NCBI GenBank assembly: GCA_010202845.1
Contig: CP047921.1
Span: forward strand, 720,001 to 752,000
Length of the DNA stretch: 32,000 nucleotides
Direction of reading: 5' to 3'
From: Candidatus Saccharibacteria bacterium oral taxon 488
GTDB taxonomy: Bacteria; Patescibacteriota; Saccharimonadia; Saccharimonadales; Saccharimonadaceae
Position numbers and translations under genes: made by a program. The notes under the pieces are model-generated. The model saw nothing but the letters and a program-made list of their open reading frames with translations, had not been told where the DNA came from and did not search any database. Shown one piece after another: positions 6,943 through 20,865 of the stretch (within the stretch, counting starts at the first letter, position 1; every line of letters starts with the position of its first letter).

Positions 6943-7401
6943 CTAGAGCAGCTCATCCAGCACTGATTGCCAGTCAGGAAACTGCGGAGTACCGAAATGG
7001 ATGTGCCAGCCAACAAACTCAGCAGCACCCCTGGCCGTCCGATCATCAATCAAGATATCACCCCGGCTCAACTGTTTGACCGACGAAAAGATAACCTTAC
7101 GATAGAAAATATTTTCCTGACCATCGCCGCCAAAATACCGTTTCACCCACGCCAGCTTATCACCCAACGCCGTCGGATTTTCCCATGGTGATGACGACAG
7201 GATGTATAGATCATACTTTTCCTTCAGCTTATCAACCGCCTCAAGGGCGCCCGGCATCGGATCCATCAATGCAAAAACACCCGGAATATTGTCATACTCA
7301 CCCGCAAACTTCTCCAGCATCTCAGGCGGAACCTTCGTCAAAGCCGACGTAAAATCCACGAGTACACCGTCCATATCAAGGTAAATAATTGGTTTCTTCA
7401 T
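6943..7401 (-). CDS. 5'(3')-deoxyribonucleotidase (NT5C-type HAD phosphatase)
   Basis: HAD motif I YLDMDGVLVDF and an overall NT5C-like layout. Start is set at ATG 7401, with AGAGGGA 7 nt upstream inside the lepA 3' end. Confidence 0.75.
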   Translation of the reverse strand: MKKPIIYLDMDGVLVDFTSALTKVPPEMLEKFAGEYDNIPGVFALMDPMPGALEAVDKLKEKYDLYILSSSPWENPTALGDKLAWVKRYFGGDGQENIFYRKVIFSSVKQLSRGDILIDDRTARGAAEFVGWHIHFGTPQFPDWQSVLDELL

Positions 7402-7403
7402 AA

Positions 7404-8366
7404 TCAATCCCTCTTTAACATCACCATAAACGCTTCTGATGGAATGTCAACCTTGCCAAAGCGTTTCATGCGCTTTTTGCCGCGAGCTTGTTTGGCGAGA
7501 AGTTTCTTTTTTCGGCTGACATCGCCGCCGTAGAGGTAGCCGGTGACATCTTTGCGGTAAGCACCGATGTTTTCGCGAGCGATGAATTTGCCGCCAATTG
7601 CTGCCTGCAGTGCCACCTCAAAGCTCTGACGCGGCACCACGTCTTTCAGCTTTTTGACGATCTCACGACCCAAACCTGGCGCCTCCGAGCGGTGACACAT
7701 GACGCTCAGCGCATCAACCATTTCACCCGCCACGTAGAAATCCACCCGCACCAAATCTTCCGGCTGATAGCCCGCCAGTTCATAATTAAACGAGCCGTAG
7801 CCGCTGGTTACCGACTTCAATTGATCATAAAAATCCGTCAGCAAATTGGCCAGCGGTGCCGTAAACGAAATCAGTGCCCGCTCGTCGATGTAACTGAGGT
7901 TTTTTTGCCGACCGCGCTTGGCGACAATCAGCTGAATCACCGCACCGATATAGTCCTGCGGCACCACAATCTCACCATCAATCCACGGCTCGCGAACCTC
8001 GGTGATCTGCACTGGATCGGGCAATTCGCTGGCTGACTTGATGTCCAGCTCCTCGCCGTTGGTGAGGCTAACTTGGTAATCCGTGCTCGGATTGGTGACA
8101 ATAAGATCCAGATTATACTCACGCTCCAGCCGCTCACGAATAATATCCATGTGTAGCAGCCCCAAAAAGCCAATCCGCACACCATACCCCAACACTGGTG
8201 AATTCTCCGGCTCAAACTGCAGCGCCGAATCGCTCAGACTCAGCTTTTCAATAGCCTCCTTCAGATCATTGTAATCTTCGTTGGACACCGGGAAAAAGCC
8301 CGCGTAGACGAAGGGCTTGACTTCTTTGTAGCCGGGCAGGGGCTGGACGGTGATTTTTTCAGTCAT
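7404..8366 (-). CDS. lepA: elongation factor 4 (LepA), C-terminal half (domains III, V and the LepA C-terminal domain) as a separate ORF
   Basis: MTEKITVQPLPGYKEVKPFVYAGFFPVS...GFLGLLHMDIIRERLEREYNLDLI...GGDVSRKKKLLAKQARGKKRMK is colinear with E. coli LepA from ...[23 protein letters not shown] to the end. The G domain and domain II are missing; they are encoded at 19789-20865. Confidence 0.92.
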   Translation of the reverse strand: MTEKITVQPLPGYKEVKPFVYAGFFPVSNEDYNDLKEAIEKLSLSDSALQFEPENSPVLGYGVRIGFLGLLHMDIIRERLEREYNLDLIVTNPSTDYQVSLTNGEELDIKSASELPDPVQITEVREPWIDGEIVVPQDYIGAVIQLIVAKRGRQKNLSYIDERALISFTAPLANLLTDFYDQLKSVTSGYGSFNYELAGYQPEDLVRVDFYVAGEMVDALSVMCHRSEAPGLGREIVKKLKDVVPRQSFEVALQAAIGGKFIARENIGAYRKDVTGYLYGGDVSRKKKLLAKQARGKKRMKRFGKVDIPSEAFMVMLKRD

Positions 8367-8377
8367 AACTGCCTACT

Positions 8378-8386
8378 ATTATATCA
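8378..8386 (-). promoter_or_regulatory. extended -10 box TGATATAAT, 11 nt upstream of the lepA C-half ATG
   Basis: The minus strand reads TGATATAAT-AGTAGGCAGTT-ATG(8366). This is the same motif class as other apparently leaderless genes in the window. Confidence 0.4.
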
Positions 8387-8411
8387 GTTGAGCGTTTACC
8401 TACTCAACTGA
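8384..8411 (-). terminator. hairpin after the 803-aa gene
   Basis: TCAGTTGAG (8384-8392) / CTCAACTGA (8403-8411) form a perfect 9-bp stem with a 10-nt loop, 5 nt downstream of the stop at 8417-8419. There is no clear U-tract. Confidence 0.35.
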
Positions 8412-8416
8412 TCGCG

Positions 8417-10828
8417 TCAACGAATTGGTCCATGTGGAGGTGTGACTATTCCTGCCCGTATAGCCCTGACATATTTGCCCAAGCTGCCCGGCATGTCACG
8501 CCAAAATTCATCGTCATATCGCCCCGACAAGACATCTGCCAAACGCTTGTCCTGATAGTGCTCGATTTGCTCGTATAGCTCACACAATCGCCAGATGATA
8601 AGCTGGTCGCTGTAGCTTGTTAAGCCTACATGTTTTAGGTTGTTAAACTGACCAACTAGCTGACGCATAATCTTAATGTTAGTATCTTCTGTAGACAGCA
8701 AGTCACTCACGAACTCATTTATATCAAACTTTCCTAACGGCGGTTTAACTAGGCTTATAAACTCAATAAATCTCGGCAGACACTTCTTCTCCTTCGCCTC
8801 TTTCGCTAACTCACCAAAATCTGCTTCGACACCCCAATACAATTCTTCTTCCTCTACAGAATCATTAGTAACCAGCCTACCGTCTCCAAACACATCATCA
8901 AACTCACCGCCCATCTCCTTGACTAATGGCTCCGCAAAACGCTTGTATTCACGGAATAGTTCGACACCCTTCCCGTCTTTTATTAAACCATTGATGACAT
9001 CCATGCAGCTACTATCAGCACCGTATCCATAGAGATTACGGTAAATATCTAGCTGGTCTATGCCATAACGCTTTTGATAGCGTTCGTCTCGCGTAAAGAA
9101 TACGCCCCTATCATAGAAAAATACCTTAAGCTTCTCCGCCTGATCAATATGGCGATCAAGGACCAGTCCACCCAGTTTGTCAATAGCCAAAATACCATGA
9201 TAAGCTATAGTTTCCACGTCCTCCACAAAATCACGTTCCGCTCGTGCAGATTGCAGCTTAGCGATACCGCCGTTTTTCCAGAAATAGCTTTCGCCAACAC
9301 TACTATCAGCCCCAAACCACAGCATCATGATGTCCCTTAGGGACAGATCCTCCCCCTTTTGCTGCTTGGTACAAATCTCATCAATCTTTTCGATTGTATG
9401 TATGGTGTCCAATTTATCCTGACCATTAGATAATTCACCGATTCTCTCATGCAGTGCATCTGTCATACACGACTCAACTCGACAGTCATCGCCATCAATC
9501 CCCAAAATCATTTTTATATCACCACCTTCACCCAGACACATCATGATACGAGGAATATTGTATCTACCGGTTGTGAATACAAGTATCTTAGTGATATTTC
9601 TATGGCCAAAGGAATCGTAACTTGATAGTGCAACCTTATACAAAAAGTCATAAATAGAGCCTGAGTCACCAGGGAACCAGCCGGTACATTGACCCTCAAG
9701 TAACGCCTGCACCTCCTCGGCTGTACCTTTTTGGGGCGTGGAAGAATCCTTATACTTACAAATTATTTCATGCCACTCCCCTTGAGTCTCTCGACGTCGC
9801 TCTTGCCCTAGGCCTGTTCGGATCGCTACCTCCCTGCCATACAGCTCACCAAACTTAGCCGCCTCCAGTTCATCGGGCCTATATTTCCACAAAGTTTCAT
9901 ATACCGCCTCAAGCGCCGCAGGATTTACCTCTGGCAAAAGTCTCTTGCTACCAGTTCGGCGAACATCAAATGTTTTGGTTTGCGGATTAAACTCTCCTAG
10001 TTCTGGACAGGCATCGATCACATAGGACAAAAACCAGTCAGGATATCTCCCGGCCTCCAATGCCGCCTTCCACTCGCCCAGACGCCCAAGCTGTGCCTTA
10101 TGAAAGTTACCAACCAACTTAATCTGCGTATCATGATTGTACCAAGCTTCGTCAAGGCCGAATCGTTCACTCCAACGAGGCGACGAAGATGATAACTGAC
10201 GCAGCTCCTCTTCACTAGGCAAACTGTTGACAATCTTACTTTCGGCCACCGGTATCGACATAATATATGAACGATACGGATATCTGTCCGGACCAGTATA
10301 CCAGTTGGGCTTGGTGGTACTTTGCTGAGGCGGCAGTGGCGATTCTTCCTCCTCTAAGTCTGTTGTTTTACCTAGGATATACCGAGTTAGCAACCTCAGC
10401 TTCTTTGTATCGTCAGCCGGATTTTTTGAACCGTATACATTCCCCAGGCGGCTATACCTCTTCACCAGTATCTCCAGGTTGCCATCCCGCCATTCACTAC
10501 CTAGCCTAGTAAAGATATCGCTTGCGAGTAGTCGCTCCAACTCCTCTGGAGTAGCATGCTCAGTCATGACGTCAAATACTGCAAATATTCTCGCGCTTCG
10601 TTCCTGAGACTTCCAGCCCTCCTCTGGATCTTTAAACTCATCCAAAGATATACGGAGAGCTTCCGCCATTTGGCCAGCTACATCAAACGTGTCGGGCGCT
10701 TCTTTTCGAAGTTGCGCTACAACCTGACCCATCTTGTCAGCGGAAACATAGTCTTTGCGAAGCTCACCTTCTAGGGTCGGATCAAGAGCGGGTCTATCAG
10801 GTGTCTCCCGATATTTATCAATCATCAT
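8417..10828 (-). CDS. hypothetical protein, 803 aa (ORFan to my eye)
   Basis: Long uninterrupted ORF with TATAAT 8 nt upstream of the ATG. It is acidic and soluble-looking, with no TM helices and no motif I can assign. Confidence 0.7.
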   Translation of the reverse strand: MMIDKYRETPDRPALDPTLEGELRKDYVSADKMGQVVAQLRKEAPDTFDVAGQMAEALRISLDEFKDPEEGWKSQERSARIFAVFDVMTEHATPEELERLLASDIFTRLGSEWRDGNLEILVKRYSRLGNVYGSKNPADDTKKLRLLTRYILGKTTDLEEEESPLPPQQSTTKPNWYTGPDRYPYRSYIMSIPVAESKIVNSLPSEEELRQLSSSSPRWSERFGLDEAWYNHDTQIKLVGNFHKAQLGRLGEWKAALEAGRYPDWFLSYVIDACPELGEFNPQTKTFDVRRTGSKRLLPEVNPAALEAVYETLWKYRPDELEAAKFGELYGREVAIRTGLGQERRRETQGEWHEIICKYKDSSTPQKGTAEEVQALLEGQCTGWFPGDSGSIYDFLYKVALSSYDSFGHRNITKILVFTTGRYNIPRIMMCLGEGGDIKMILGIDGDDCRVESCMTDALHERIGELSNGQDKLDTIHTIEKIDEICTKQQKGEDLSLRDIMMLWFGADSSVGESYFWKNGGIAKLQSARAERDFVEDVETIAYHGILAIDKLGGLVLDRHIDQAEKLKVFFYDRGVFFTRDERYQKRYGIDQLDIYRNLYGYGADSSCMDVINGLIKDGKGVELFREYKRFAEPLVKEMGGEFDDVFGDGRLVTNDSVEEEELYWGVEADFGELAKEAKEKKCLPRFIEFISLVKPPLGKFDINEFVSDLLSTEDTNIKIMRQLVGQFNNLKHVGLTSYSDQLIIWRLCELYEQIEHYQDKRLADVLSGRYDDEFWRDMPGSLGKYVRAIRAGIVTPPHGPIR

Positions 10829-10836
10829 TGATCACG

Positions 10837-10842
10837 ATTATA
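10837..10842 (-). promoter_or_regulatory. -10 box TATAAT, 8 nt upstream of the 803-aa gene start
   Basis: The minus strand reads TATAAT-CGTGATCA-ATG(10828), with no Shine-Dalgarno. Confidence 0.4.
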
Positions 10843-10874
10843 CTACTTTTTAATAATTTGTCAATTATATTATG

Positions 10875-12578
10875 CTAGCAGGTTGCACCCTGGCGAGTTT
10901 TCTTCAGTATCTCAGCAATCTTCTCCTTTTGCTCGGGGCTGTAGAAATAGCCTAACGCTTTACTCATACCACCGCCTTTCCCCTTAGCACGGTATCGTGA
11001 CGGCTGTCCAAAATTGGGGTCGTTCCTTATTAAACTATCAACTATCCTATCAAATAGAGGGGCACTACAATGTAACTCACGCATGATCTCTTTTTTTACT
11101 TGATACCCTTCAGGAGCCAACTCCGTATAGCCTTCACTTCTGAGATACTTACCTATCTTATCAACTTGCTCCGGTGACAAGCCTTCACGAATTCTCACCT
11201 GACCACTTTCAGCGACAAATCTATAGATTTCAGGCCGTAGGTTCAGCAAGTCCATGGCATCTCTCACCAATTTCAAACCCACCCCAAGGCGCTTTGTTGC
11301 CGTACTTATCATGGCATATCCCTCTGGTGGTGGAGGCGCAAATAACCCATTCTCCTGTGCTTTTCTCATAATCATTGCCTGCTGCTCCGGACTATAAAAC
11401 TCGTGCACCTGACCAGAACGACACTTTATACCATCAGATAGGACACCAGCTTTTTTAAGTTCTCTTGCTATCCTTATCAGTGCCATCACTGTCACATCTA
11501 CAGTTTTGGCGAGAGCAGTGATTGTCAAATACCCCTCTGGGGGCGGCTGTGTAAACAACCCTCTCTCCTCAAGCCTTTTTCGTATTACTTCAACCTGCTC
11601 TTCAGTAAAAATTGATTGCTCTTCTCCATACCAATCTCGCTTAGCTACACATCCCAACAAACCCTCCTGATTCAATTCAGCAATGTGTCTTACGATGGTG
11701 CGATACACTACTCCAAACTTAGCTGCCAATTGATTGGCATTCATCATCCCCTCTTCATTCGCCTGAGGGGGATTTAGATAATTACCCCCGCGCCGGGTAT
11801 CCACCCCAGCTGATTGCTGAATATCATTCGCTAGCGCCTCCACTAGGTGCGGCACAAACTGCTTGTCGCAGCGTACCGATACACCACAGTCTGGATATTG
11901 CTCCATCACCCCCGCAAGCTGCGTTTTCGTACAGGTAGCCAGCTTTGCCCGCTCTTCTTCTGGCAGCCGCGTTGTATCAAATACAAAGGTACCGTTACCG
12001 TAGGCGTCACAAATTAGCACCGTCCGCTCGAGCGGTGGGATATTCACCTCATGGTATGGCTCTTGGCGCATCATCGCTGTCTCCACTGACCCACGACGAA
12101 TCTGTAATGCTTCGCCGCTCGGCTCAATACCAAATTCATTTGCCAACACGAATAGCAGTGTTTTCAGCCGGGGTTGGCGAGTCGCCCTCTCACGGTGGGG
12201 CGCCTCGGACACACTGGCGGTAGGCCCGGGCCGCTCATCGGGTGGCACAAAGACATGGTCAGTCGATTCAATCTGGCCAATAACCGTATCAATAGCTATG
12301 AGCTGCTCCGCTTTGTCAGCAATATGGCCAAGCAACTCATTGAGCGGCTCTATGCCGTAGTAAGCAAACACCGCATTCTCCCTTTCACCAGAATTGTCTA
12401 GCCAAATCGTTGGCTGATGGTTGTATACTTGCACCATATCATTAATTAGCTGGATCAATTTATCCAAGGCAGCCTCAGCGTAGGTATCGACATTTTCAAC
12501 CGTCAACGGTTGATTAATAATTTCCTCTACACTGCTTGCAAAGTCCTTGCCATGATCAATACTACCGAGTCGCTCCAT
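10875..12578 (-). CDS. hypothetical protein, 567 aa, with four tandem ~71-aa HTH-like modules in the C-terminal half
   Basis: Modules at roughly aa 270-346, 347-417, 418-488 and 489-560 each follow the pattern (P)PEGY-x-helix-turn-helix-like segment-...-(Y/L)SPEQ-x3-I-x6-G. They resemble MerR/excisionase-type HTH units. The N-terminal 270 aa is unassigned. Confidence 0.7.
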   Translation of the reverse strand: MERLGSIDHGKDFASSVEEIINQPLTVENVDTYAEAALDKLIQLINDMVQVYNHQPTIWLDNSGERENAVFAYYGIEPLNELLGHIADKAEQLIAIDTVIGQIESTDHVFVPPDERPGPTASVSEAPHRERATRQPRLKTLLFVLANEFGIEPSGEALQIRRGSVETAMMRQEPYHEVNIPPLERTVLICDAYGNGTFVFDTTRLPEEERAKLATCTKTQLAGVMEQYPDCGVSVRCDKQFVPHLVEALANDIQQSAGVDTRRGGNYLNPPQANEEGMMNANQLAAKFGVVYRTIVRHIAELNQEGLLGCVAKRDWYGEEQSIFTEEQVEVIRKRLEERGLFTQPPPEGYLTITALAKTVDVTVMALIRIARELKKAGVLSDGIKCRSGQVHEFYSPEQQAMIMRKAQENGLFAPPPPEGYAMISTATKRLGVGLKLVRDAMDLLNLRPEIYRFVAESGQVRIREGLSPEQVDKIGKYLRSEGYTELAPEGYQVKKEIMRELHCSAPLFDRIVDSLIRNDPNFGQPSRYRAKGKGGGMSKALGYFYSPEQKEKIAEILKKTRQGATC

Positions 12579-12585
12579 GTACGAT

Positions 12586-12594
12586 ATTATAGCA
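12586..12594 (-). promoter_or_regulatory. extended -10 box TGCTATAAT, 7 nt upstream of ATG 12578 (leaderless)
   Basis: The minus strand reads TGCTATAAT-ATCGTAC-ATG, with no Shine-Dalgarno. Confidence 0.5.
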
Positions 12595-12775
12595 TCTTAT
12601 ACTATTATTGTAAATAGTGGGCCCTCTCAATCACAAATAACCACCTTAACCCAGCCACATATTCTTTACTGAATCCCATAATGGCACACTCATGTCTTTA
12701 TCAAATTGAAAATTTAGTTCTCATTAGTGGATTATCGGGTCGGCAAGGGCGCTCAATCCTCTATAATAATGTCTT

Positions 12776-13744
12776 TTAATAGGTCGGTTTAGAATAAGCC
12801 TGCTGTTCGCCATAGCCGATGCGTAGCAAAATAGTCGGATATTCTCCGGCCAGACCCAGTGTCTTTGCCATTTCTGCGGCAATTTCTGGCTGCTCATTTG
12901 GCTGGTTCAGATAGGCATGAGCGATCCCAAGCTCCGTGGCAGTCAGCAAGAAACGCTGCAGCGTCCGACCCAAACTCACCCATTCGCACCGACTATTTTC
13001 TCTCGTCGTAAAAAGAACCAGATGAGAAGCCGATGCTATCTTTTCGCGATCGGCCTTATTCTGCGTCTTAGCATTGATAGCCATCGACATGATCGGCTCA
13101 GCCATCCAGCGCGGCACATTAGGCGCGCCAAACACAGCATAACTCAGCCCGTCAAGTGTTTGATCTTGATGCTTCTTGTTAAATCGCATCCAGCTTTTCA
13201 ATTCAGCCTTAAACGCCTCATTTTGCATTTGACGTACATTTCCTTGAAAGACACATTGTTCAATATCATGAAATTGCTCTGTTTGATGTGCGTAATAATG
13301 AACTGAGACACCCTTTTCATTGCTAACGGATTGTAGTTTCTTTAGTGCATCCGGAGCAATTTCCTCACCGGTATAAATGCTACGATTAATCTGCCGTGCA
13401 TCTATCTGTTCGAACAATGGACTCGGCTTGATACCAGCATCTTCTGTAAGTGAAATCGTGATAACTCCCGTATCACCAATTGAAATGGTAGATTTATAGC
13501 CCTTGGTTTGCGCTGCCAAGCAGAGGTTCTCGGCTGCACAGCCCAGACTCACGAATAACTCCCTGTTGTCAGGGTCGACTACTGGTAGCTTTCTGTCAAA
13601 ATCAGGATAAATTTCTACCGCCGACTCGTTCTGACGAAATTTCCACGGCTGAGTATTATGGCCTGACGGCGCCTTGACAGCTTGCGCAACCAAAAATTCA
13701 AAGCTAGCTGATGATATGTTGTTACTGCGAGACATTCTTACCAT
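12776..13744 (-). CDS. Acg-type (double-domain) nitroreductase family FMN oxidoreductase
   Basis: The N-terminal AVKAPSGHNTQPWKF motif and the ~320-aa two-lobed length match the Acg/Rv2032-like nitroreductase family. The start is ambiguous (TTG 13756, ATG 13744 or ATG 13735). Confidence 0.7.
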   Translation of the reverse strand: MVRMSRSNNISSASFEFLVAQAVKAPSGHNTQPWKFRQNESAVEIYPDFDRKLPVVDPDNRELFVSLGCAAENLCLAAQTKGYKSTISIGDTGVITISLTEDAGIKPSPLFEQIDARQINRSIYTGEEIAPDALKKLQSVSNEKGVSVHYYAHQTEQFHDIEQCVFQGNVRQMQNEAFKAELKSWMRFNKKHQDQTLDGLSYAVFGAPNVPRWMAEPIMSMAINAKTQNKADREKIASASHLVLFTTRENSRCEWVSLGRTLQRFLLTATELGIAHAYLNQPNEQPEIAAEMAKTLGLAGEYPTILLRIGYGEQQAYSKPTY

Positions 13745-13832
13745 AATTCTACCCAATACACGAGCCTTCCCATCTCGTTAGCTACTTCTTATAACCAAGT
13801 ATACTCACCCTATAGGAGCGAGGTCAATCAAT

Positions 13833-13943
13833 ATCGCCAAGACTAAGCTTTCAGCCATTCTTCTTGAAATCATTGTAATCCTCGTTAGATGCCAGGAAAA
13901 AGCCTGACTATCCTACTTACACCATTCTAACCGCCTGAGTCAT
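13833..13943 (-). pseudogene. lepA: decayed copy of the first ~135 nt of the lepA C half (junction remnant C')
   Basis: The minus strand starts with ATGACT, as the real C half does. It then reads ...GGCTTTTTCCTGGCATCTAACGAGGATTACAATGATTTCAAGAAG..., which aligns to lepA 8229-8366 (GFFPVSNEDYNDLKEAIEKLSL). It carries an internal deletion, a 1-nt indel and an in-frame TAA. Confidence 0.75.
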
Positions 13944-14031
13944 GACCTTAGGCGGGCGAGAGTGTTCTATGTATTGCCAGACAGATGTCGCAGGCTAGAT
14001 TGGTCTATATTACCAACTCGTATGCATGTTC

Positions 14032-16647
14032 CTATACGAGCCTATCTAGCCCCTGTCCAAGTTTGATACTGTAAGGATAAGCTGGGTCAAAAACTTCTGC
14101 GCGTTCAAAATCGATCGGCCGCATTGATGCAATACGGTATTGCCCATTATCATCCCTGCTATACTCAATGATAAAATCTTTCAAACGCCATGGTTTATCA
14201 ATCCCTGTATCATGCCGTACGGTCTCAGCGATGTCTTGTATGCGCGAAAGGGCGTCAGTCATCAGCTCTCGCTGATTTGACTCCGGCACAGCATTGTCCA
14301 CAAAGAAATTGCGTACCGTTCGCCCGCTCTCGCCATTTATCTTCTCCATCACAACAAAACCTTGTTGCCCGTTCGTAAAGACCCGAGCAATTGGCTTTGG
14401 CGCGTCAACGCCAAGCTTGCGTAGCAACAAAAGCGCCTCGAACTCATCGACTGGCCCCCGACGCTTTGCCTCCACGACATTCTTCACAATCACCTCGGTG
14501 TCGCCAGCAAGCGATAGCCCAAAAACTGCCTCACCAGGATACGGATCGTTTGGGTTCGCTATTTTGAGTGATGTCGCCGACTGCAGTAGTTCGGTGCCAA
14601 TATCAGGACTTGAGAACAGTTCGGATAACTGGCCTTTTACTGCCTCACTATAACTACTGTCGATCCTCATTTCTCGCTGATTTTCCAGGCTTCTCACTTC
14701 GTAACCCAAGTTAACCGGCTCCGTGTTTTTTAGCTCGCGAGTATAGTAATGCCGGTGCAGAGCTAGCTGTGTCATACGAAAAGCCAGACGTTCACTGGGG
14801 CTAGTCGGTCGACTATACGGTTCCAACCGGCCATCTTCAGTGCGATACAAACCCCCTGCTGACTCTTCGTCCTTGACATTGTATTCTATAGTATCTACTA
14901 TATTATTTCTTTCCAGCTTGTCACCTTTCAGACCCAGCACCGTTCTTGGTCGGTCTCTTGCACTAAGCAGTCTAATTCGGCTATCATAATCATAGTCTGA
15001 CCCTGGCACCCCTAGCACGCTCATGATATCGTCAGGAATCGTTCCTGTAAATCCAGTGTCATAGTAATGGGCGGCGTCTGGGTGCTGGATATGAGAACGC
15101 AGGTACTCGCCTTTTACTTCGTCGTTAAAGTTATTGCAAAACTTTCGCGGATACACAAGGTAGGTAGGAAACTCTATGAGCGACCCGCCTGTCGCACGGC
15201 TACTCATACCGAGTTTGCGGCGGCGGGCGTAGAGTTGAGCACGGCGCCCCACGTACGCATAGACACCGTCACGACCGAGGAATACTTCTTCAAATTCTCT
15301 CTCGCCTATCCGCTTAGTGTCCCACTCGGCAAACAATCTATCGTAGTAGCCAGTATCAACTTCAAGTACCTGATTGAATATTTTAGCCGCTCTTTCCAGG
15401 GTTTCAGATATATCAATCTCTCCCATCTCGGCTATATAGTCTGCCACCAGCCTGCGGTAGGTCGGCCAGGCATCACCCGTCTTGTCTCCTCGCCCACCGA
15501 ATAACTCTTGGACATACCGGTCTCCGTACCGCGACGCTATATCCTTCTGCAGTTTATCGTAGGCCTGTTTAATAGTCTCTCTCAATCTCCTATCATCTTC
15601 GGTTTTGGGAAGTCGCAAACGTCGATCGGCCTGAACCGCTCTTTTGTGAAATTCCGTCCCCGGTCGAGATGATGTCACATGCTCTATGTCACCCGCCTCG
15701 TCTGCGTATGGATGATATTTCACTATACCGCGCAGCTCTGGCTTGAGTTCGGCAATATATGCACGTAACCTAGACGCCTCTTCTGCACCAATAAGCCCCT
15801 CCAGGTCAAGCTGAGTAACTTTTTGCGCAGTCGAGTAGTGGTTTGCACATGCCCACAATACAGTACTCCGTGCGACTGTGTCCATACCGTAGTATGATAA
15901 ATGACCAAGGACGGCATCTGCTAGATCGTCGCTTAATTTTATCTTATCTATACAGCTAAGGACTATTTCTGGGGCAGTTTCACCAAAGACATATACGCAT
16001 TGCAGTACCTGTAATTCATAGCCGGCATCAATGAGTTCGTAGGCGATACTAGCATCAAGGCCGGTAAAGTTCTTGAGGTAGCCAGCAACTACATCACCGT
16101 GGCCGGTATTGATGATTTTGTGGGCAATTTCATTGTGATCGAGACCAGTAAAGTTCTTGAGGTAGTAGGTGACTGTCCCACAATTACCAGCATCGATGAG
16201 TTTGTGGGCAATTTCATTGTGATCAAGGCCGGTGAAGTTCTTGAGGTAGTAGGCAACTGTCCCACTCTCACAGGCATCGATGAGTTTGTGGGCAATACTA
16301 GCATCAAGGCCGGTGAAGCTATCGAGGTTGCGGGCAACTGCCCGACCATGGCCGGCATTGATGAGTTTGTGGATGTCATGGTTCGTCAATTGATGGTTAG
16401 AATTCTCGCTTACCAGAGTCTCAAGCAACTCATCAACAGTGTATGTATCTTCTACCGCCTGCTTAAACCCTCTCTCACCATCTCGCGCAACATGACCAAC
16501 AAGAGAATTCTCGACACAAGAAAGACCTTCGTGATTCTCTGCCCGACCCGCAGAGTCCCCTGTCAAGTCTTCAGAGTCCAATGAACCTTCGGTTATGTAT
16601 TCAGAATCATCTACTCTTATAATTTTTCCTGTTTCGTGACCGTTCAT
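14032..16647 (-). CDS. hypothetical multidomain protein, 871 aa (N-terminal 27/28-aa helical repeats, C-terminal kinase-like region)
   Basis: AAGGAAAAA Shine-Dalgarno. Aa ~90-230 carry 4-5 repeats of HKLIDAGxxGxVxxYLKNFTGLD(HNE/AS)IA. The centre has FLGRDGVYAY ... YYDTGFTGTIPDD, faintly HAD-like. The last ~170 aa carry VIVK, EFEALLLLRKLG, VVMEKINGES and PIDFERAE, spaced like an APH/choline-kinase/RIO-type fold. Confidence 0.7.
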   Translation of the reverse strand: MNGHETGKIIRVDDSEYITEGSLDSEDLTGDSAGRAENHEGLSCVENSLVGHVARDGERGFKQAVEDTYTVDELLETLVSENSNHQLTNHDIHKLINAGHGRAVARNLDSFTGLDASIAHKLIDACESGTVAYYLKNFTGLDHNEIAHKLIDAGNCGTVTYYLKNFTGLDHNEIAHKIINTGHGDVVAGYLKNFTGLDASIAYELIDAGYELQVLQCVYVFGETAPEIVLSCIDKIKLSDDLADAVLGHLSYYGMDTVARSTVLWACANHYSTAQKVTQLDLEGLIGAEEASRLRAYIAELKPELRGIVKYHPYADEAGDIEHVTSSRPGTEFHKRAVQADRRLRLPKTEDDRRLRETIKQAYDKLQKDIASRYGDRYVQELFGGRGDKTGDAWPTYRRLVADYIAEMGEIDISETLERAAKIFNQVLEVDTGYYDRLFAEWDTKRIGEREFEEVFLGRDGVYAYVGRRAQLYARRRKLGMSSRATGGSLIEFPTYLVYPRKFCNNFNDEVKGEYLRSHIQHPDAAHYYDTGFTGTIPDDIMSVLGVPGSDYDYDSRIRLLSARDRPRTVLGLKGDKLERNNIVDTIEYNVKDEESAGGLYRTEDGRLEPYSRPTSPSERLAFRMTQLALHRHYYTRELKNTEPVNLGYEVRSLENQREMRIDSSYSEAVKGQLSELFSSPDIGTELLQSATSLKIANPNDPYPGEAVFGLSLAGDTEVIVKNVVEAKRRGPVDEFEALLLLRKLGVDAPKPIARVFTNGQQGFVVMEKINGESGRTVRNFFVDNAVPESNQRELMTDALSRIQDIAETVRHDTGIDKPWRLKDFIIEYSRDDNGQYRIASMRPIDFERAEVFDPAYPYSIKLGQGLDRLV
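16022..16400 (-). repeat. in-frame tandem repeat, about 4.5 units of 81/84 bp, inside the 871-aa gene
   Basis: Unit starts are at 16022, 16103, 16187, 16271 and 16352. Units 16103-16186 and 16187-16270 are near-identical at the DNA level. Confidence 0.9.
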
Positions 16648-16881
16648 TTTTTCCTTTTACCTATTGATGATTATGGTCTATATTGTAATATATAGCCACT
16701 GAACGCCGCAAGTATTCTATTCTAAAGTGTCTTACTCGCAGGATTAGGTTTGCAGCTCAGAGAGGACTGTTCCGCCATATTTAGCATGGCGTATCTAACG
16801 ACTATGGTCATGGTGGATCGGCTGAGGGGATCGGGTCTTGACATGGTTTTTCAATCAGCTTGATTTAGCAAAATACTTGGT

Positions 16882-17196
16882 TTACTCCCACCGCCGCGTG
16901 CTATTGATCTCGTGCTTCTCAAAATACACTTCCGCCAAATTAACATCAAACCGATTCGCCAGCTCCATCAAATAATTCAGTACATCCGCAAATTCCTCGT
17001 GCAGATTATCATGGTTATCAGGTCTTTTTTCTCCCTTAAATCCCGTCTCTTTGCGAATCGCTTTCGCCAGCTCGCCAACCTCCTCAGTAAACAATAAGAA
17101 TACTTCGGTAACAGAATTTTTATCCCATCCTTTTTCTTTACACGTTTGATCGAGGTGTTTTTGTAATTCAGTTAAGCTGATTGTTTGTGGATTCAT
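16882..17196 (-). CDS. MazG-like nucleoside triphosphate pyrophosphohydrolase (small, single domain)
   Basis: 104 aa with the EEVGELAKAIRK ... EEFADVLNYLMELA motif pair typical of the all-alpha MazG/NTP-PPase fold. GAGGAGAAG Shine-Dalgarno. Confidence 0.8.
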   Translation of the reverse strand: MNPQTISLTELQKHLDQTCKEKGWDKNSVTEVFLLFTEEVGELAKAIRKETGFKGEKRPDNHDNLHEEFADVLNYLMELANRFDVNLAEVYFEKHEINSTRRWE

Positions 17197-17240
17197 ACTT
17201 CTCCTCTATTTATCTCGTTATCGACGCGAATGGCTTGCGT

Positions 17241-17849
17241 TTATAATTCAACATCCGGCAAGTCCTTCAACTTCTTGCCGTCAAAGCAAAAATACGCTGC
17301 ACCCTGATAGGCACCGCTATTGTTGGCTTGATTTTTATCTTCGAAGATCTTTCGCACTAGCGGCGACAGTAGCCACCGCTGTCCGCCATACTCAACTTCA
17401 CGTTCGCCGACAACTTTAGCGACAATCGTCTGGTCTTTGCTAAAGACAATTTTATCGCCGTTTTTGAGGCCTTTTCGATAAAAGCTAAACTTTTGATTAC
17501 TGTTCTTGGCTTTGGTGATTTTATCAAATTCCGCTTCTTTATTTTTCTGCTCCGGAAAGATCACCTCACCCTCAAACGACAGCAGCAGTTGTCGCACCAA
17601 ATCATAATCAAGCGCGAAAAGCTCGCTACTACCGACTCGATGCTTGGCAAATATTTCGTGCAGTAATGTTTCCTTTTCGGAGTAGTCAGCCACCTCGATC
17701 GCGAACAACCGCTTCAAACCAACCACATTGTAGTAGCCGTTCGCCTCGAGAAAACGCATCCGCTCTGGGTATTGCTTGGTTTGCGCCTTGCCGATTTTGA
17801 TAAGGCCTGACACTGCGGTGGTCATGACGTAGATGATGCCTTTGCTCAT
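17241..17849 (-). CDS. GIY-YIG / T5orf172-family nuclease-like protein with a C-terminal extension
   Basis: The N terminus GIIYVMTT...GLIKIGKAQ...ERMRFL...EKETLLHEIFAKHRVGSSELFAL matches the T5orf172/GIY-YIG-like pattern. AAGGAGGA Shine-Dalgarno. The C-terminal ~90 aa is unassigned. Confidence 0.7.
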   Translation of the reverse strand: MSKGIIYVMTTAVSGLIKIGKAQTKQYPERMRFLEANGYYNVVGLKRLFAIEVADYSEKETLLHEIFAKHRVGSSELFALDYDLVRQLLLSFEGEVIFPEQKNKEAEFDKITKAKNSNQKFSFYRKGLKNGDKIVFSKDQTIVAKVVGEREVEYGGQRWLLSPLVRKIFEDKNQANNSGAYQGAAYFCFDGKKLKDLPDVEL

Positions 17850-18019
17850 TATAATTCCTCCTTATAACTAATATTCTACACTACTTTCACAGAACCTAGC
17901 TTGTTGAAGAATCACTATTTATAACCTGAGAGGCCTCCAGCCGGTCTCTCAGTTGAAAATATTGGCTGGCAGACACTTTGACCGGGTCGTCTGAAGTATC
18001 AATCACAGTTTACTCTGCA

Positions 18020-18142
18020 TTTTCTCAACGTAACCGTATCAGCTACCCGCGCCTCACGAGTGGTGTTGAGGTTGGTAATAATGTAGCCGGGTAGCAGTGT
18101 TTCCTTTCCGGAATATTCAGTCGCCCCAATCGCTTCATGCAT
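18020..18142 (-). pseudogene. lepA: decayed copy of the lepA N-half 3' end (junction remnant N'3)
   Basis: It translates to MHEAIGATEYSGKETLLPGYIITNLNTTREARVADTVTLRK, then unrelated CRVNCD*. By hand alignment, 54 of 69 nt are identical to lepA 19807-19875. Similarity stops at the same Lys codons as in the real gene. Confidence 0.8.
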
Positions 18143-18192
18143 AATGTTGTAGCATTTTATTTTATAAATAATGGCAACTCATTCTTAACTCA

Positions 18193-18870
18193 CTATGCTT
18201 TCGGCAAAAAACCGCGCGCCACGAGCGCCTGCCAAGCCGTGTCTGCCGAGAGAGATGACGGCTGAGGCGTTGAAAATCCCTTATCGGGATAGATCTTTAT
18301 CCGCTCGTAATCACCCAGCATCAACGTCAACATCATGACGGCACTGCCATAGGTTACCTCATATAAGCGATAATATGCCTCTAATGTTGTCGGCTGACTA
18401 GTTACATACAGTCGCGGCCGCGGGTGCGGCCACTGAGCCTCGGCGGTTGCCAAAAATCGACGCGTCATATACGGTTTATGAATTAAAATGATATCCTCAG
18501 CCTGGATCGCCGCCCCCGCCAGCAGCTGAGCCGAACGGATGATGTTTTCACCGGTATTAGCAGCTTGGTGCTCAAACAGAATCGCCGAGTCGGGCACCGC
18601 CAAGCATTGGAGCTGTCGTCCTAGCAGTGTCGCTTCGGTTTCCGTGGCCCTATGATAGGGATTAGCAAATCCTGACACCACAATCCATGAACTAATGCCC
18701 GCATGATACAGCTCGGCTGCTCGCTCGGCGCTATCGACCATAGCTCCCGCGCCACCGATCACGATAGCATCCGCCCGCACCGGTAGCCGACTCTCAACAC
18801 AAAGATATTCCCATAGCACATGAAGATGGTGCCAGTCTTGATCAGTGAGAGCTAGCTGACTACGCGACAT
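18193..18870 (-). CDS. YdcF/DUF218 (ElyC/SanA/YdcF) family protein
   Basis: 225 aa with AIVIGGAG...VVSGF...EATLLGRQL...ANTGENI, characteristic of the DUF218 family. The start overlaps the tail of remnant N'2. Confidence 0.75.
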   Translation of the reverse strand: MSRSQLALTDQDWHHLHVLWEYLCVESRLPVRADAIVIGGAGAMVDSAERAAELYHAGISSWIVVSGFANPYHRATETEATLLGRQLQCLAVPDSAILFEHQAANTGENIIRSAQLLAGAAIQAEDIILIHKPYMTRRFLATAEAQWPHPRPRLYVTSQPTTLEAYYRLYEVTYGSAVMMLTLMLGDYERIKIYPDKGFSTPQPSSLSADTAWQALVARGFLPKA

Positions 18871-18886
18871 GTGTTAGCTCTCGGTG

Positions 18887-18995
18887 TTTTTTCAATGTCG
18901 CTGTATCGCCCACCCGCACTTCACAGTTGATGACGATGTGGCCAATTTCACCGGTGTCCAGCGATGGGCTAGGATCATACCCTGACTGAGATTGA
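18887..18995 (-). pseudogene. lepA: decayed copy of the lepA N-half 3' end (junction remnant N'2)
   Basis: It lies inside the 78-aa ORF 18860-19096: ...[32 protein letters not shown], then unrelated HRELTHVA*. Hand alignment to lepA 19808-19905 gives a 37-nt block with 6 mismatches, a 12-nt gap and a 49-nt block with 6 mismatches. Confidence 0.85.
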
Positions 18996-19145
18996 TTATG
19001 ACACCGCTGCCAAAACTCCGGTACCACAAACGTGACCGACGACGCTGCGAAAGCAACTGCCAAATGCGTGTTGTATTCTCTGAAGAAGGATGTCATTCAT
19101 TCAGTATAGCATCTTACAAAGATGGAGTGACATCCACAGGGTTAC

Positions 19146-19784
19146 TTACGTTTCAACTTCCTTACGAGATATCCACACGACCATCATAATAGACCAGCCA
19201 AATAGTGACACTTCCGACACCACTGTCAATGGCACCGAGACTTCGCCCGCATAGTATGTGCCGACGACCTTTAGCAATGCAACACATACGCTTATTAGGA
19301 TAATCAGCCGAGATTTCGTAATAATTGCTACCGCAATAACACATGCAGACAATGCCAGCGCCATCCAATGTAGTCCCGCAAACAGTTGACTCGCCGATAA
19401 TACACTTGTTGCTGAGTCAATCGGCAATCCATTCACCGGATAAACGAGTCGGCCAAGCGCCATCATTGCGTAAAATGCGCCAATTGCCACAACAATACCT
19501 AGAGCAAGAACTACACCCATGCTAACAGGGTGGCGCCTCCTGAGATTACCGTACAATACCACAACAACGGCTAGCAACATTGACGACCCACATGCTAGCA
19601 TCTCATCTGCTATCTGAAAAGTAGTCTGGTGCTGTTGCACCCACGCCATCACACCCGAAATGTCTGCTGAAGGTATCGGCAGTGACATTGCAATACTAAT
19701 GCAGGCCGCGGCAAGCAAACCAAAACCCATCAACCATACGATACTACCAATATACGAAATACGCCGACTGCCTTGCTTCACCAC
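19146..19784 (-). CDS. hypothetical integral membrane protein (about 6 TM helices)
   Basis: 212 aa and strongly hydrophobic. GTG start with AAGGAG 7 nt upstream; that RBS lies in the last codons of the lepA N half. Confidence 0.6.
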   Translation of the reverse strand: MVKQGSRRISYIGSIVWLMGFGLLAAACISIAMSLPIPSADISGVMAWVQQHQTTFQIADEMLACGSSMLLAVVVVLYGNLRRRHPVSMGVVLALGIVVAIGAFYAMMALGRLVYPVNGLPIDSATSVLSASQLFAGLHWMALALSACVIAVAIITKSRLIILISVCVALLKVVGTYYAGEVSVPLTVVSEVSLFGWSIMMVVWISRKEVET

Positions 19785-19788
19785 TATC

Positions 19789-20865
19789 TCACTCCTTTGT
19801 CATATACTTTTTCAACGTCACCGTATCACCCACCCGTGCTTCACGCGTAGTCTTCAAGTTGGTGACGATGTAGCCAATTTCACCGGTATCCAGCGATGAG
19901 TCAGGGATCATGCCAGGACTAAGATGGCCAACTTCTAGTGCCAGCCCGTTAGCGCCAGTCGCCATCATATGAATTGCTTCACCTTTTTTGATTTGGCCGT
20001 CAACCACCCGCACATACAAAATCACCCCGCGGTAATCGTCATAATAACTATCAAAAATCAGTGCCCGCGTCGGGTCGTCCGGCTGGCCAGTTGGCGCTGG
20101 AATTCGCTCAACAATCGCCGCTAAAACTTGGTCAACATTCTGCCCAGTTTTGGCAGAAATATGAATAATGTCGCTTTCATCGCAGCCCAGCAAATTAATC
20201 ACCTGTTTGGACACCCGTGGCACATCAGCGGCCGGCAAATCAACCTTGTTCAGCACCGGAATGATCGTCAAATCCTGCTCCATCGCCAGGTATACATTCG
20301 CCAGCGTCTGCGCCTGAATGCCTTGGCTGGCGTCAACCACCAATACCGCGCCCTCGCAGGCCTGCAAACTACGCGACACCTCATAACTAAAGTCAACGTG
20401 ACCAGGCGTGTCGATGAGATTGAGATCGTAGACAGTTGGCTGAGCCAACCCATTCACACCGACATCTGCACAAACCCGAGAGTCAGACTGCGCTAAGCGG
20501 GTGGCAGTCGATGGGGTAGCGCCCGCTTCTGAAGAAATCTCTGATTTTTCAGAAGAAGGGGCGGATCGACTGGCAGGACCCGCGTCTAGCGACCGACGTG
20601 AAGACTCTGCAAGAGTCTTCGACGATGGGAGCGGTGATGCGCCGCTCACCTCCACCTCCTGATATTCATATTTCATCCGCACTGGCGCGAGCTTAATGGT
20701 GATCCCCTTCTCGCGCTCCAAATCCATACTATCCAGCAGCTGCGACTTCATCTCGCGCTTCTCCACCGTCCCCGTCATCTCCATCATCCGGTCCGCCAGC
20801 GTCGATTTACCGTGATCAATGTGAGCGATGATACAAAAATTACGAATACTGGTCAGCGGTTTCAT
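19789..20865 (-). CDS. lepA: elongation factor 4 (LepA), N-terminal half (G domain + domain II) as a separate ORF, with a ~72-aa low-complexity insertion
   Basis: [15 protein letters not shown] (G1), GITIK (G2), DTPGHVDF (G3) and NKVDL (G4). It is colinear with E. coli LepA up to ...VGDTLTL, then reads KKYMTKE*. The start overlaps the murJ stop (TGATG). Confidence 0.92.

Follow-up and report, generated by a model that had tools for sequence, protein, structure and literature searches.

Accessory genes accumulate between the two halves of a split lepA gene in Saccharibacteria, together with relics of the lepA ends

The analysed window, a 32,000-nucleotide stretch of a Nanosynbacter-like genome (Candidatus Saccharibacteria bacterium oral taxon 488, contig CP047921.1, positions 720,001 to 752,000), contains the translation-factor gene lepA in two pieces, split at the hinge that joins domain II to domain III, with domains I–II on one side and domains III and V and the C-terminal domain (CTD) on the other. 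Accessory genes and three short lepA remnants occupy the gap. The features are listed from the N half to the C half, with the supporting evidence in brackets:

19789–20865, minus strand: lepA N half, G domain and domain II, 358 aa (Pfam GTP_EFTU, GTP_EFTU_D2)
19789–19803, minus strand: cassette-specific tail MTKE-stop of the N half, holding the RBS of the next gene (junction comparison)
19146–19784, minus strand: mem212, a 212-aa membrane protein gene, the newest unit beside the live N half (dS, metagenome loci)
18996–19145, minus strand: 3' flank of the mem212 cassette (class-A relic alignment, five genomes)
18888–18992, minus strand: N'2, relic of the lepA N-half 3' end, class A, profile positions 31–149 (BLASTN, nhmmer, shuffles, alignments)
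18863–18887, minus strand: former-junction tail HRELTHVA-stop (colinear with live tails of L001 and L010)
18193–18870, minus strand: DUF218/YdcF cassette gene (Pfam DUF218, E 4e-17)
18089–18192, minus strand: 3' spacer of the DUF218 cassette (repeat D6; identity to L001; T5orf172 match in L006)
18021–18088, minus strand: N'3, relic of the lepA N-half 3' end, class B, profile positions 81–149 (BLASTN, nhmmer, shuffles)
17241–17849, minus strand: T5orf172 (GIY-YIG family) gene, 202 aa (Pfam T5orf172; PADLOC PDC-S57, E 3e-58)
16882–17196, minus strand: MazG/dUTPase_2-like gene, 104 aa (family match; strain comparison)
14032–16647, minus strand: 871-aa gene with internal 84-nt repeats (repeats, locus comparison)
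13830–13909, minus strand: C', relic of the lepA C-half 5' end, profile positions 41–120 (BLASTN, TBLASTN, nhmmer)
12776–13829, minus strand: nitroreductase (Acg-family) cassette (Pfam, NCBIfam, promoter scan, empty/occupied pair)
10875–12614, minus strand: 567-aa multi-HTH gene (family search, promoter scan, locus comparison)
8417–10864, minus strand: 803-aa gene (family search, locus comparison, promoter scan)
7404–8407, minus strand: lepA C half, domains III, V and LepA C-terminal domain, 320 aa (Pfam EFG_III, EFG_C, LepA_C)

Comparison with the intact lepA of relatives placed the cut at TLKKY/ITVQPLPGY. In the N half, lepA homology runs as far as KK, whose last base is 19807, and the following Y codon. 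The original prediction had both N' copies and the live N half diverging right after a shared (K/R)K; this coincidence was borne out, but the true junction lies one codon later, at KKY/ITVQ. The C half begins with a cassette-specific head, MTEK, before ITVQPLPGY, and has a promoter-like site of its own with a TG-extended -10 element (8378–8407). With dN/dS values of 0.04–0.14 for the N half and 0.01–0.07 for the C half (0.01–0.14 together), both halves are under strong purifying selection. The junction is identical among split loci, and the linker length is equal in relatives with intact lepA. The split is ancient, and the two-ORF gene is still functional, in one clade of these tiny oral Saccharibacteria; split and intact alleles are interleaved in a single-protein NJ tree, so the split may have more than one origin. 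The two LepA halves presumably reassemble physically. Insertion had been envisaged inside a protein-coding gene, but lepA was already split and insertions fall between its halves, the N side not always being the point of entry.

Searching the whole window with both lepA halves (BLASTN) yielded only three significant matches beyond the genes themselves. N'2 aligns at 18888–18992 with N-half nt 941–1058 (75.4% over 118 columns, one 12-nt gap, E 4e-19), N'3 at 18021–18088 with N-half nt 991–1058 (79.4% over 68 nt, E 1.7e-11), and C' at 13833–13904 with C-half nt 67–138 (75% over 72 nt, E 2.7e-8). TBLASTN E-values were 1e-7, 2e-7 and 2e-4, respectively, and local-alignment scores lay 32, 19 and 19 SD above those of 300 dinucleotide-preserving shuffles; nhmmer scored N'2 at 64 and N'3 at 57 and returned E 5e-8 for C'. 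The three predicted remnants, whose quoted translations were also correct, are real recombination scars, and chance is excluded. The window arrangement recurs in at least 10 independent assemblies and is therefore no assembly artefact. Two of the proposed extents required trimming. C' had been drawn as 13833–13943; it is firm for 13830–13909, and beyond 13909, up to the ATGACT start at about 13943, lepA similarity is weak, residual and more decayed. N'3 had been drawn as 18020–18142; its lepA portion is 18021–18088, and 18089–18142 is not lepA, containing instead a T5orf172 fragment. The scraps in the gap are leftover copies of the cut lepA ends that record how the genes recombined in.

Next to the live N half stands mem212, a gene without a family match. 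A lepA N-end piece with the tail YM(T/A)KE-stop always precedes it (47 metagenome loci); the combination of YM(T/I)KE-stop and mem212 is live in the window and lies behind a relic in L001, L102, L098, L135, L136 and L139. L098 carries two mem212 copies, and a lepA-tagged copy occurs in a Corynebacterium genome. In five genomes, the 3' flank travels with mem212 and with the N'2 5' boundary whatever lies downstream; a TGnTATACT-like element lies within it, as does the beginning of a 78-aa ORF, called in L081, which continues through N'2. N'2 itself is a mosaic of a cassette-borne 5' part of ~45 nt, with a 1-nt deletion, and a 3' part from the old N/DUF218 junction, with the 12-nt deletion. The stop of its tail HRELTHVA overlaps the DUF218 start codon, and N'2, tail and DUF218 match base for base the live N half, tail (FRERTHVT-stop in L001, FRERTHAA-stop in L010) and DUF218 of L001 and L010, where DUF218 (91–93% aa identity) directly follows the live N half. 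By this colinearity, N'2 is a former live junction.

The DUF218 3' spacer, conserved in 13 metagenome loci, ends with a ~46-nt fragment of a T5orf172 gene (18088–18133) fused to N'3; the spacer with this fragment is 86–88% identical to L001 8435–8551 and matches the T5orf172 gene of L006. N'3, a 68–69 nt copy, closes the DUF218 cassette and terminates in TLRK, then a C codon where Y is expected. Its 5' boundary is shared with L098, L135, L136 and L139, in which mem212 follows.

Further inward, the T5orf172 gene has homologues directly after hsdR or beside type III restriction-modification (R-M) genes; this neighbourhood suggests a candidate defence cargo rather than a homing endonuclease. The MazG unit is exchanged independently, with two other genes in its place in strain L086, and the 871-aa gene also assorts independently, the live C half coming immediately after it in L011 and L014. 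C', the nitroreductase gene and the promoter-like site between them (13798–13827, TTGACC-18-TATACT) form a conserved unit, C' being linked to nitroreductase in four species. This, with better-preserved C' copies in alignments of L008, L009 and L022, contradicts the suggestion that N'3 and C' flank a whole imported lepA site: C' belongs to the nitroreductase unit kept in those three relatives, and the site of L008 itself reads live N half, T5orf172 and onward to the 871-aa gene, C', nitroreductase and live C half. The 567-aa gene (promoter-like site 12586–12614) is unaccompanied by nitroreductase in L010 and precedes C'-nitroreductase in L009. The 803-aa gene has no family match; its promoter-like site (10837–10864) agrees with the consensus at 12/12 positions. 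Instead of four modules, then, at least 7–8 units assort independently: the mem212, DUF218, T5orf172, MazG, 871-aa, nitroreductase, 567-aa and 803-aa genes.

Related lepA loci hold alternative cargo. Among 74 informative lepA loci, 26 are split, with gaps of 0.4–11.5 kb. Across 26 species-level relatives, the gap contents (0.4–11 kb) differ, comprise ~40 gene families and are nearly all co-oriented with lepA. Neither the window nor any of the more than 70 gaps yielded an integrase, transposase or recombinase, and no tRNA adjoins the lepA locus. The gap is a hotspot where accessory genes pile up. Cassette order differs among genomes and each cassette keeps its own lepA scrap, in agreement with the successive accretion originally predicted. 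The same cassettes sit on backbones with MurJ only 57–60% identical, and the window backbone is itself mosaic, with murJ like that of L010 and a lepA G-domain insert like that of L006–L008. Since the dS of mem212 to the L001 copy is 0.175, against 0.57–2.9 for core genes, the cassettes are younger than the backbone.

Individual events are visible in pairs of empty and occupied sites. On the N side, L134 is empty, and the occupied sites of L139, L136 and L135 have in addition an 805-nt DUF218 cassette and 68 nt of duplicated lepA end; the flanks are 96–98% identical between L134 and L139. This pair, like the colinearity with L001 and L010, agrees with repeated use of one site, the N' copies being former live junctions. 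On the C side, identity between L011/L014 and L008 is 97.2% to the left, C' included, and 88.8% to the right; an incoming nitroreductase gene and C half therefore displaced the resident C start. Relics are mosaic: the upstream cassette accompanies their 5' part, the downstream cassette their 3' part. The expected decay with distance from the live N half did not materialize: identity is 75% for N'2, which has a 12-nt deletion, and 79% for N'3, and the 3' part of a relic moves together with its downstream cassette. The 5' boundaries of relics fall at scattered positions (lepN nt ~891; profile positions 31, 38, 81 and ~134), truncated genes adjoin relics, and one joint, between MazG and lepN in L118, lies at a 6-nt microhomology (CGATTC). 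Identical 5' boundaries nevertheless recur in differing downstream contexts (classes A and B), and the class-A crossover interval (profile positions 60–88) takes in the class-B boundary (81), which might point to favoured breakage there. An internal deletion is present in the relic of L001 and L102.

Cargo probably accreted through homologous and illegitimate recombination in a naturally competent lineage, with relics reused as homology arms. Natural competence and homologous integration have been published for Saccharibacteria (PMC10633639), and homology-facilitated illegitimate recombination (HFIR) is defined in PMC3240628. Competent cells would take up DNA of related strains, which would recombine through homology provided by the strongly conserved lepA ends; sometimes one fragment end would find homology while the other joined illegitimately (HFIR). 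After such one-sided joining, the resident lepA end would be displaced inward rather than replaced, becoming an N' or C' relic, and the cassette between live end and relic would possess its own direct-repeat pair. It could then be inserted beside the live N half of any split-lepA genome by homologous recombination, through a double crossover or a Campbell-type event from a circle, and lost again, the relics acting as portable homology arms. The window would represent two N-side additions, mem212 and DUF218, atop an older array of T5orf172, MazG, the 871-aa gene, C'-nitroreductase, the 567-aa gene and the 803-aa gene. Transformation would be the entry route, and cargo recombination presumably depends on RecA. 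Because efficient double crossover would normally call for an arm longer than 68 nt, a circular intermediate or some further enzyme may be at work.

Site-specific integration, in which a dedicated recombinase with its gene elsewhere in the genome would insert circular cassettes bearing an attP-like lepA N end at the KK junction, would account for the integron-like layout of co-oriented genes each followed by the same ~70–120 nt sequence, for insertion beside the live N half, for the clean 68-nt duplication, and for identical relic boundaries in different contexts together with the 60–88 interval overlapping position 81. We consider it unlikely: besides the lack of integrases and transposases in the window and more than 70 gaps and of an adjacent tRNA, there are five different relic 5' boundaries, the microhomology joint, truncated neighbouring genes, insertions on the C side and in mid-array, and breakpoints beyond the KK site, given identical tails joined to different genes in L016 and L019. 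Internal rearrangement alone, that is, tandem duplication, unequal crossing-over and deletion in one lineage without horizontal input, is distinctly unlikely. Direct repeats of lepA ends can recombine mutually, and the double mem212 of L098 and the deleted relic of L001/L102 fit such events, but cassette divergence is uncoupled from backbone divergence, the same cassettes occupy the diverged MurJ backbones, the incoming and resident sides of L008 differ (88.8% versus 97.2%), and a tagged mem212 copy resides in Corynebacterium.

Homing-type acquisition, with a free-standing GIY-YIG/T5orf172 endonuclease that cut lepA, made the split and stimulated cargo-dragging gene conversion at its breaks, is highly improbable. 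In L006, L008 and L118, 20 nt separate the gene from the live N half before it; its fragment is fused directly to N'3, its protein family is ~70% identical across phyla and thus suggests horizontal mobility, and functional genes split by homing endonuclease genes are known, e.g., Aeh1 nrdA (PMC3045599). Against this, it occurs in only 3 of 30 species-level gaps, the simplest split loci hold other small genes, it matches the candidate defence family PADLOC PDC-S57 (E 3e-58), its close homologues adjoin hsdR or type III R-M genes rather than split genes, and no homing-endonuclease relative of the protein was found among solved structures; the scattered 5' boundaries and the microhomology joint argue likewise against homing or an integrase. 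Chance similarity or an assembly artefact has a negligible probability given E-values down to 4e-19, z-scores of 19–32 and the identical arrangement in at least 10 independent assemblies, even though L082, a related contig, was assembled as a chimera crossing between two mem212 copies.

The pneumococcal cps locus is a similar recombination hotspot between conserved genes. Neisseria minimal mobile elements (MMEs; PMC3082526) likewise hold alternative cargo between two conserved flanks, without mobility genes, in a naturally competent host that exchanges them via transformation and homologous recombination in the flanks. Unlike in MMEs, however, a single split gene provides both flanks at lepA, cargo builds up into arrays of up to 10 genes instead of being swapped one for one, and cassettes hold internal flank copies (68–118 nt) as extra homology arms. 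Tandem accretion of islands at tRNA/tmRNA genes resembles the lepA gap in reusing one site, leaving a target-end direct repeat per event and pushing older units inward while repeats decay; the lepA gap differs in lacking an integrase and a fixed att core, in variable repeat boundaries that include illegitimate joints, and in its target, a protein-coding gene functional in two pieces. Integron arrays share short, co-oriented, mostly one-gene cassettes, each followed by a recombination-competent repeat, and the entry of new cassettes beside an upstream platform, whereas the lepA gap lacks both IntI and any detected attC hairpin, its repeat duplicates the coding end of the neighbouring gene, and many of its cassettes have promoter-like sites of their own. 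Aeromonas phage Aeh1 nrdA, split by a homing endonuclease gene, also comprises two selected ORFs with foreign DNA between them (PMC3045599); the lepA gap, by contrast, is part of a cellular genome and carries multi-gene cargo that varies, and its sole nuclease-like gene is sporadic and resembles defence cargo. HFIR (PMC3240628) combines one homologous anchor with one illegitimate, microhomology end, and would for this reason produce the duplicated target ends and truncated neighbouring genes. It is known mainly from laboratory transformation assays, whereas at lepA it is deduced from natural variation, in which its products have turned into reusable cassettes.

LepA is encoded in the window by two open reading frames, an N half and a C half, lying 11.4 kb apart with cargo in the gap between them:

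lepA N half: 19789-20865, minus strand, 358 aa, G domain and domain II
lepA C half: 7404-8366, minus strand, 320 aa, domains III and V plus the LepA C-terminal domain

A genome-collection scan using the C half as a query identified 80 Saccharibacteria loci, in 26 of which (the window counted) the halves are 0.4-11.5 kb apart; lepA is intact in more distant Saccharimonadales. In all split alleles the N half ends with ..DTVTLKKY and the C half restarts with ..ITVQPLPGYK, whereas intact alleles read ..DTVTVKRSHADEPLPGYQ across the junction. Because split and intact junctions are equal in length, the cut is confined to one position of the linker that connects domains II and III. The tail (the codons after KKY, with the stop) and the head (the codons before ITVQ, with the start) change with the adjoining cargo. 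dN/dS values of 0.04-0.14 (N half) and 0.01-0.07 (C half) across species denote strong purifying selection, and both halves are probably still functional after the split. Split alleles occupy one subtree of a neighbor-joining tree, with a few intact ones interleaved; a single origin of the split is likely, if not proven.

Additional variation was observed within and immediately beyond the N half. Between the switch I region and DTPGH of its G domain, LepA carries a low-complexity Ser/Ala/Pro-rich insertion of ~79 aa (window 20428-20664, residues 68-146). The related loci L003 and L012-L016 lack this insertion; it differs in L001 and L010 and is 93-97% identical to that of L006-L008, yet the adjoining murJ is L010-like; the insertion is a second recombining variable region within lepA. 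Four loci (L095 ~740-760, L096 ~5975-5995, L124 and L127) carry a 7-nt tandem duplication (TATGACATATGACA) in the tail past KKY, before mem212, a cassette gene for a 212-aa membrane protein, so that the length and reading of the N-half tail vary among strains while lepA proper is unaffected.

BLASTN searches with both halves against the window returned three further significant matches, all others having E > 0.3. N'2 and N'3 are relics of the 3' end of the N half, and C' of the 5' end of the C half:

N'2: 18888-18992, lepA strand, 75% over 118 columns, E 4e-19
N'3: 18021-18088, lepA strand, 79% over 68 nt, E 2e-11
C': 13833-13904, lepA strand, 75% over 72 nt, E 3e-8

With E values from 4e-19 to 3e-8 and scores exceeding those of dinucleotide shuffles by 19-32 SD, these are genuine lepA pieces, as the original prediction had proposed; the peptides it quoted for them were correct, and it rightly recognized that the N' copies share a breakpoint with the live N half and that one lepA site has been used repeatedly. 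Two of the extents required revision. N'3, placed at 18020-18142, is a lepA piece with a T5orf172 gene fragment (18089-18142) fused on upstream, and C', placed at 13833-13943, holds in its core but resembles lepA only weakly over its first ~35 nt.

Comparison with related loci clarified the identity of each remnant. N'2, the HRELTHVA* tail behind it and the DUF218 start that overlaps this tail align base for base with the live junction of L001 and L010, which consists of the N-half end, a tail reading FRERTHVT* or FRERTHAA*, and DUF218; this alignment identifies N'2 as a junction that was once live. The window's live junction, KKYMTKE* followed by mem212, has counterparts in L001 and L102, where it lies downstream of DUF218 and is preceded by a relic. 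N'3 is a lepA copy of 68-69 nt closing a DUF218 unit (in the order DUF218, spacer, T5orf172 fragment, N'), and this unit, with its boundary unchanged, precedes T5orf172 in window-type strains and tail plus mem212 in L098, L135, L136 and L139. C' belongs to a conserved unit, comprising C'(1-121), a promoter (TTGACC-18-TATACT) and a nitroreductase gene, which directly precedes the live C half in L008, L009 and L022. Among 26 split GTDB representatives, the window was the only one in which nhmmer detected N' relics (a short one in L001 was recovered via alignment alone), and five, including the window, gave C' relics; the frequency of relics becomes visible only with strain-level metagenome contigs.

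A 78-aa open reading frame (18863-19096) begins within the 3' flank of mem212, immediately past a TGnTATACT-like element, runs in frame across N'2 and stops 8 nt past the DUF218 start codon. By this route translation of DUF218 may remain coupled, a possible reason for the retention of N'2. The intergenic segments 17850-18020, 16648-16881 and 13905-14031 had no match among species representatives.

Pairs of loci representing states before and after insertion were found on both sides of the gap. On the N side, L134 reads N-tail-mem212, while L139, L136 and L135 read N-tail-DUF218-spacer-T5orf172 fragment-N'-tail-mem212; the latter arrangement is longer by 805 nt and by a 68-nt duplication of the lepA end, and the flanks are 96-98% identical. 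On the C side, L011 and L014 carry the gene for an 871-aa protein followed by the live C half, and L008 has C' and the nitroreductase gene between them. The left match of L008 to this pair is 97.2% and continues through C', whereas the right match is 88.8%, indicating that the resident C start was displaced by an incoming nitroreductase gene together with a foreign C half.

A metagenome scan with mem212 as the query yielded 47 loci, whose relics were classified by their 5' boundary:

Relic classes at mem212-bearing loci
Class A: 5' boundary at profile position 31, 13 loci
Class B: 5' boundary at profile position 81, 13 loci
Class C: 5' boundary at profile position 38, 5 loci
Class D: 5' boundary at lepN nt ~891, 2 loci
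16-nt tag: 5' boundary at profile position ~134

Inside each class, the 5' boundary travels with the upstream cassette, as does the 5' part, and the 3' part and tail track the downstream cassette. The 3' part of class A, for instance, looks fresh before T5orf172 (L099) and carries a 12-nt deletion before DUF218. In class D, codon 47 of MazG is joined to lepN through the 6-nt microhomology CGATTC (L118). The backbone is mosaic in its own right, and dS between mem212 and its L001 copy is 0.175, far below that of every core gene (0.57-2.9). Several parts of the original prediction were not borne out. Its gradient of decay away from the live N half is contradicted by N' identities of 75% versus 79% and by the mosaic relics; instead of four modules precisely, there are at least 7-8 independently assorting units; the import of a whole occupied site as its third module found no confirmation, nor did integrase-like or homing mechanics.

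We propose that incoming DNA would recombine while anchored by the conserved lepA ends. In rare events, one end would be joined by homology and the other illegitimately, leaving the displaced lepA end as a relic. The cassette would thereby come to lie between direct repeats, and ordinary homologous recombination could then move, stack, reorder or lose it. Saccharibacteria are documented to be naturally competent and to integrate DNA by homology (PMC10633639), homology-facilitated illegitimate recombination (HFIR) has been established as a process (PMC3240628), and the mosaic flanks and relics are consistent with transformation and homologous recombination. As in HFIR, one side of the joint is homologous and the other is connected at a microhomology with duplication or deletion (CGATTC in L118; L008 versus L011). 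The gap works like the minimal mobile elements of Neisseria (PMC3082526), with conserved flanks, alternative cargo among strains and no mobility genes. To our proposal may be added an improbable extension, in which the lepA-end copies, beyond being passive scars, would serve as recombination sites of a dedicated Saccharibacteria cassette-capture platform that is integrase-free or of a kind yet to be recognised; expression signals would come from split lepA, as would a favoured break or crossover point near GGCTACAT, ~70 nt before the junction, and the platform would export cassettes across phyla.

Other systems resemble the gap in layout. It shares the accretion style of tRNA islands, since direct repeats of the target end flank its units (N'2, N'3, C' and the 68-nt duplication of L139 versus L134), but differs from integrase islands in their defining features. 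The island ends bear no tyrosine or serine recombinase gene, and searches of the island genes, about 35 cargo families and the window flanks (Pfam, NCBIfam, PADLOC) revealed no integrase, transposase or recombinase. No tRNA gene is adjacent, the nearest, at 26.4 and 30.4 kb, being unrelated. Neither a fixed att core with constant repeat boundaries nor a fixed breakpoint in the lepA end fits the data, as the 5' boundaries are scattered over lepN nt ~891 and profile positions 31, 38, 81 and ~134, and one joint lies at a microhomology. One crossover interval overlaps one relic boundary; as a fixed breakpoint this is unproven. The evidence does not support a site-specific recombinase: the searches yielded none, the boundaries differ between relic classes, and insertions are seen on the C side and inside the array too. 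A break may nevertheless be favoured near GGCTACAT.

The gap likewise recalls integrons in its co-oriented cassette array of variable content, evident from gap maps of 30 loci, but the element upstream is the lepA N half rather than intI with attI and Pc. A repeat search at cassette boundaries detected no attC-like inverted repeats, and the 3' ends of cassettes are copies of lepA coding sequence. A gene split by a homing endonuclease would leave two conserved open reading frames, as seen here (dN/dS 0.01-0.14, with presumed function), and T5orf172 would be the candidate enzyme. Its gene, however, is present in just 3 of 30 gaps, matches the defence candidate PDC-S57 (PADLOC) and has relatives, ~70% identical across very different phyla, located directly after hsdR or beside type III restriction-modification genes. 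The homing-endonuclease reading is therefore weak, and in the residence and family ties of its nuclease gene the gap departs from such split genes. The T5orf172/GIY-YIG family (window 17241-17849; homologue loci L141-L146) comprises proteins of ~200 aa with >2000 members found, and in CPR genomes its start lies 5 nt past the stop of type I hsdR.

According to the same 30 gap maps, each gap holds 1-10 genes, nearly all co-oriented with lepA, from about 40 families. These include three NUDIX types, MazG, Ham1, GrpB, peptidase S51, SDR, GT4, nucleotidyltransferase, Fic, DUF6994, SemiSWEET, DNA-alkylation repair, a CCA-type enzyme fused to Schlafen/AlbA_2, nitroreductase, DUF218 and T5orf172. The window flanks consist of housekeeping genes (dnaK, grpE, hrcA, gmk, murJ, ftsH and tilS). 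Nucleotide house-cleaning is a functional theme of the cargo, the hosts being nucleotide scavengers. Such enzymes (three NUDIX families, MazG and Ham1/ITPase) are frequent in the gaps of L017-L021 and L026; in the window, MazG is encoded at 16882-17196 and a 5'-deoxynucleotidase (NT5C) at 6943-7407, directly after lepA.

A number of cassettes apparently come with promoters of their own. Strong sigma-70-like matches on the minus strand, one of them 12/12, are located at 10837-10864, 12586-12614, 13798-13827 and 8378-8407, directly upstream of the genes for an 803-aa protein, a 567-aa protein and the nitroreductase and of the lepA C half, respectively, the last with a TG-extended -10. The 871-aa gene contains four to five tandem 84-nt coding repeats (16024-16386), and its product measures 871, 926 or 986 aa in the sister strains L081-L086. 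The nitroreductase cargo is decaying in part of the population: segment 13367-13536, intact in the window, is missing from L081, L083-L085 and L088-L090, where only a 150-aa fragment is called.

In a whole clade of ultra-small host-associated bacteria, a near-universal translation GTPase is maintained as two pieces, and the gap is one of the clade's few sites to hold and swap accessory genes, which encode membrane proteins and enzymes of nucleotide cleaning and include candidates for defence. The lepA scraps provide a stepwise record of gene entry into a streamlined genome without integrases or transposases, and mark a safe, naturally used landing site with ready homology arms for Saccharibacteria genetics. 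No description of split lepA or of a gap hotspot in Saccharibacteria was found in the open-access literature.

Cultivated Saccharibacteria live as epibionts on Actinobacteria (PMC10633639), and what looks like transfer of a lepA-gap cassette to an oral actinobacterium was observed. Corynebacterium-type mem212 retains GACGTTGAAGAAGTAT, the last lepA N-half codons, with tail and RBS; the lepA tag is about 16 nt, and with tail and RBS it reads GACGTTGAAGAAGTATATGGCAAAAGGAGTGAG. This tag makes the gene flow directly traceable, apparently from Saccharibacteria to the actinobacterium. The homologue lies in a ~5 kb low-GC patch, the DNA on both sides having 58-66% GC, with glnA/glnE and a heme-oxygenase gene on one side and a threonine synthase gene on the other, and it occurs lepA-tagged on numerous independent contigs, the longest of 2.07 Mb. 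Of the island, only the mem212 unit is truly present in the actinobacterial genome. Metagenome contig L082 (ERZ772753 NODE_30), considered as an island in an actinobacterial genome, was rejected: the N-terminal ~95 aa of its mem212 are host-type and the remainder is near-identical to the window, so it is most likely an assembly chimera crossing within the shared gene.

In L140 (8001-8690; GCA_963554065.1, a MAG named uncultured Corynebacterium sp. by NCBI), the mem212 homologue is ~80% identical at the amino acid level, and the window counterpart of the unit spans 19146-19822. The same homologue was found in 13 further loci (L104, L106, L109, L111, L112, L114, L116, L119, L122, L123, L125, L126 and L130) and sits within an array of paralogous small open reading frames. 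Loci L129 and L131 have kept a longer lepA piece of 111 nt.
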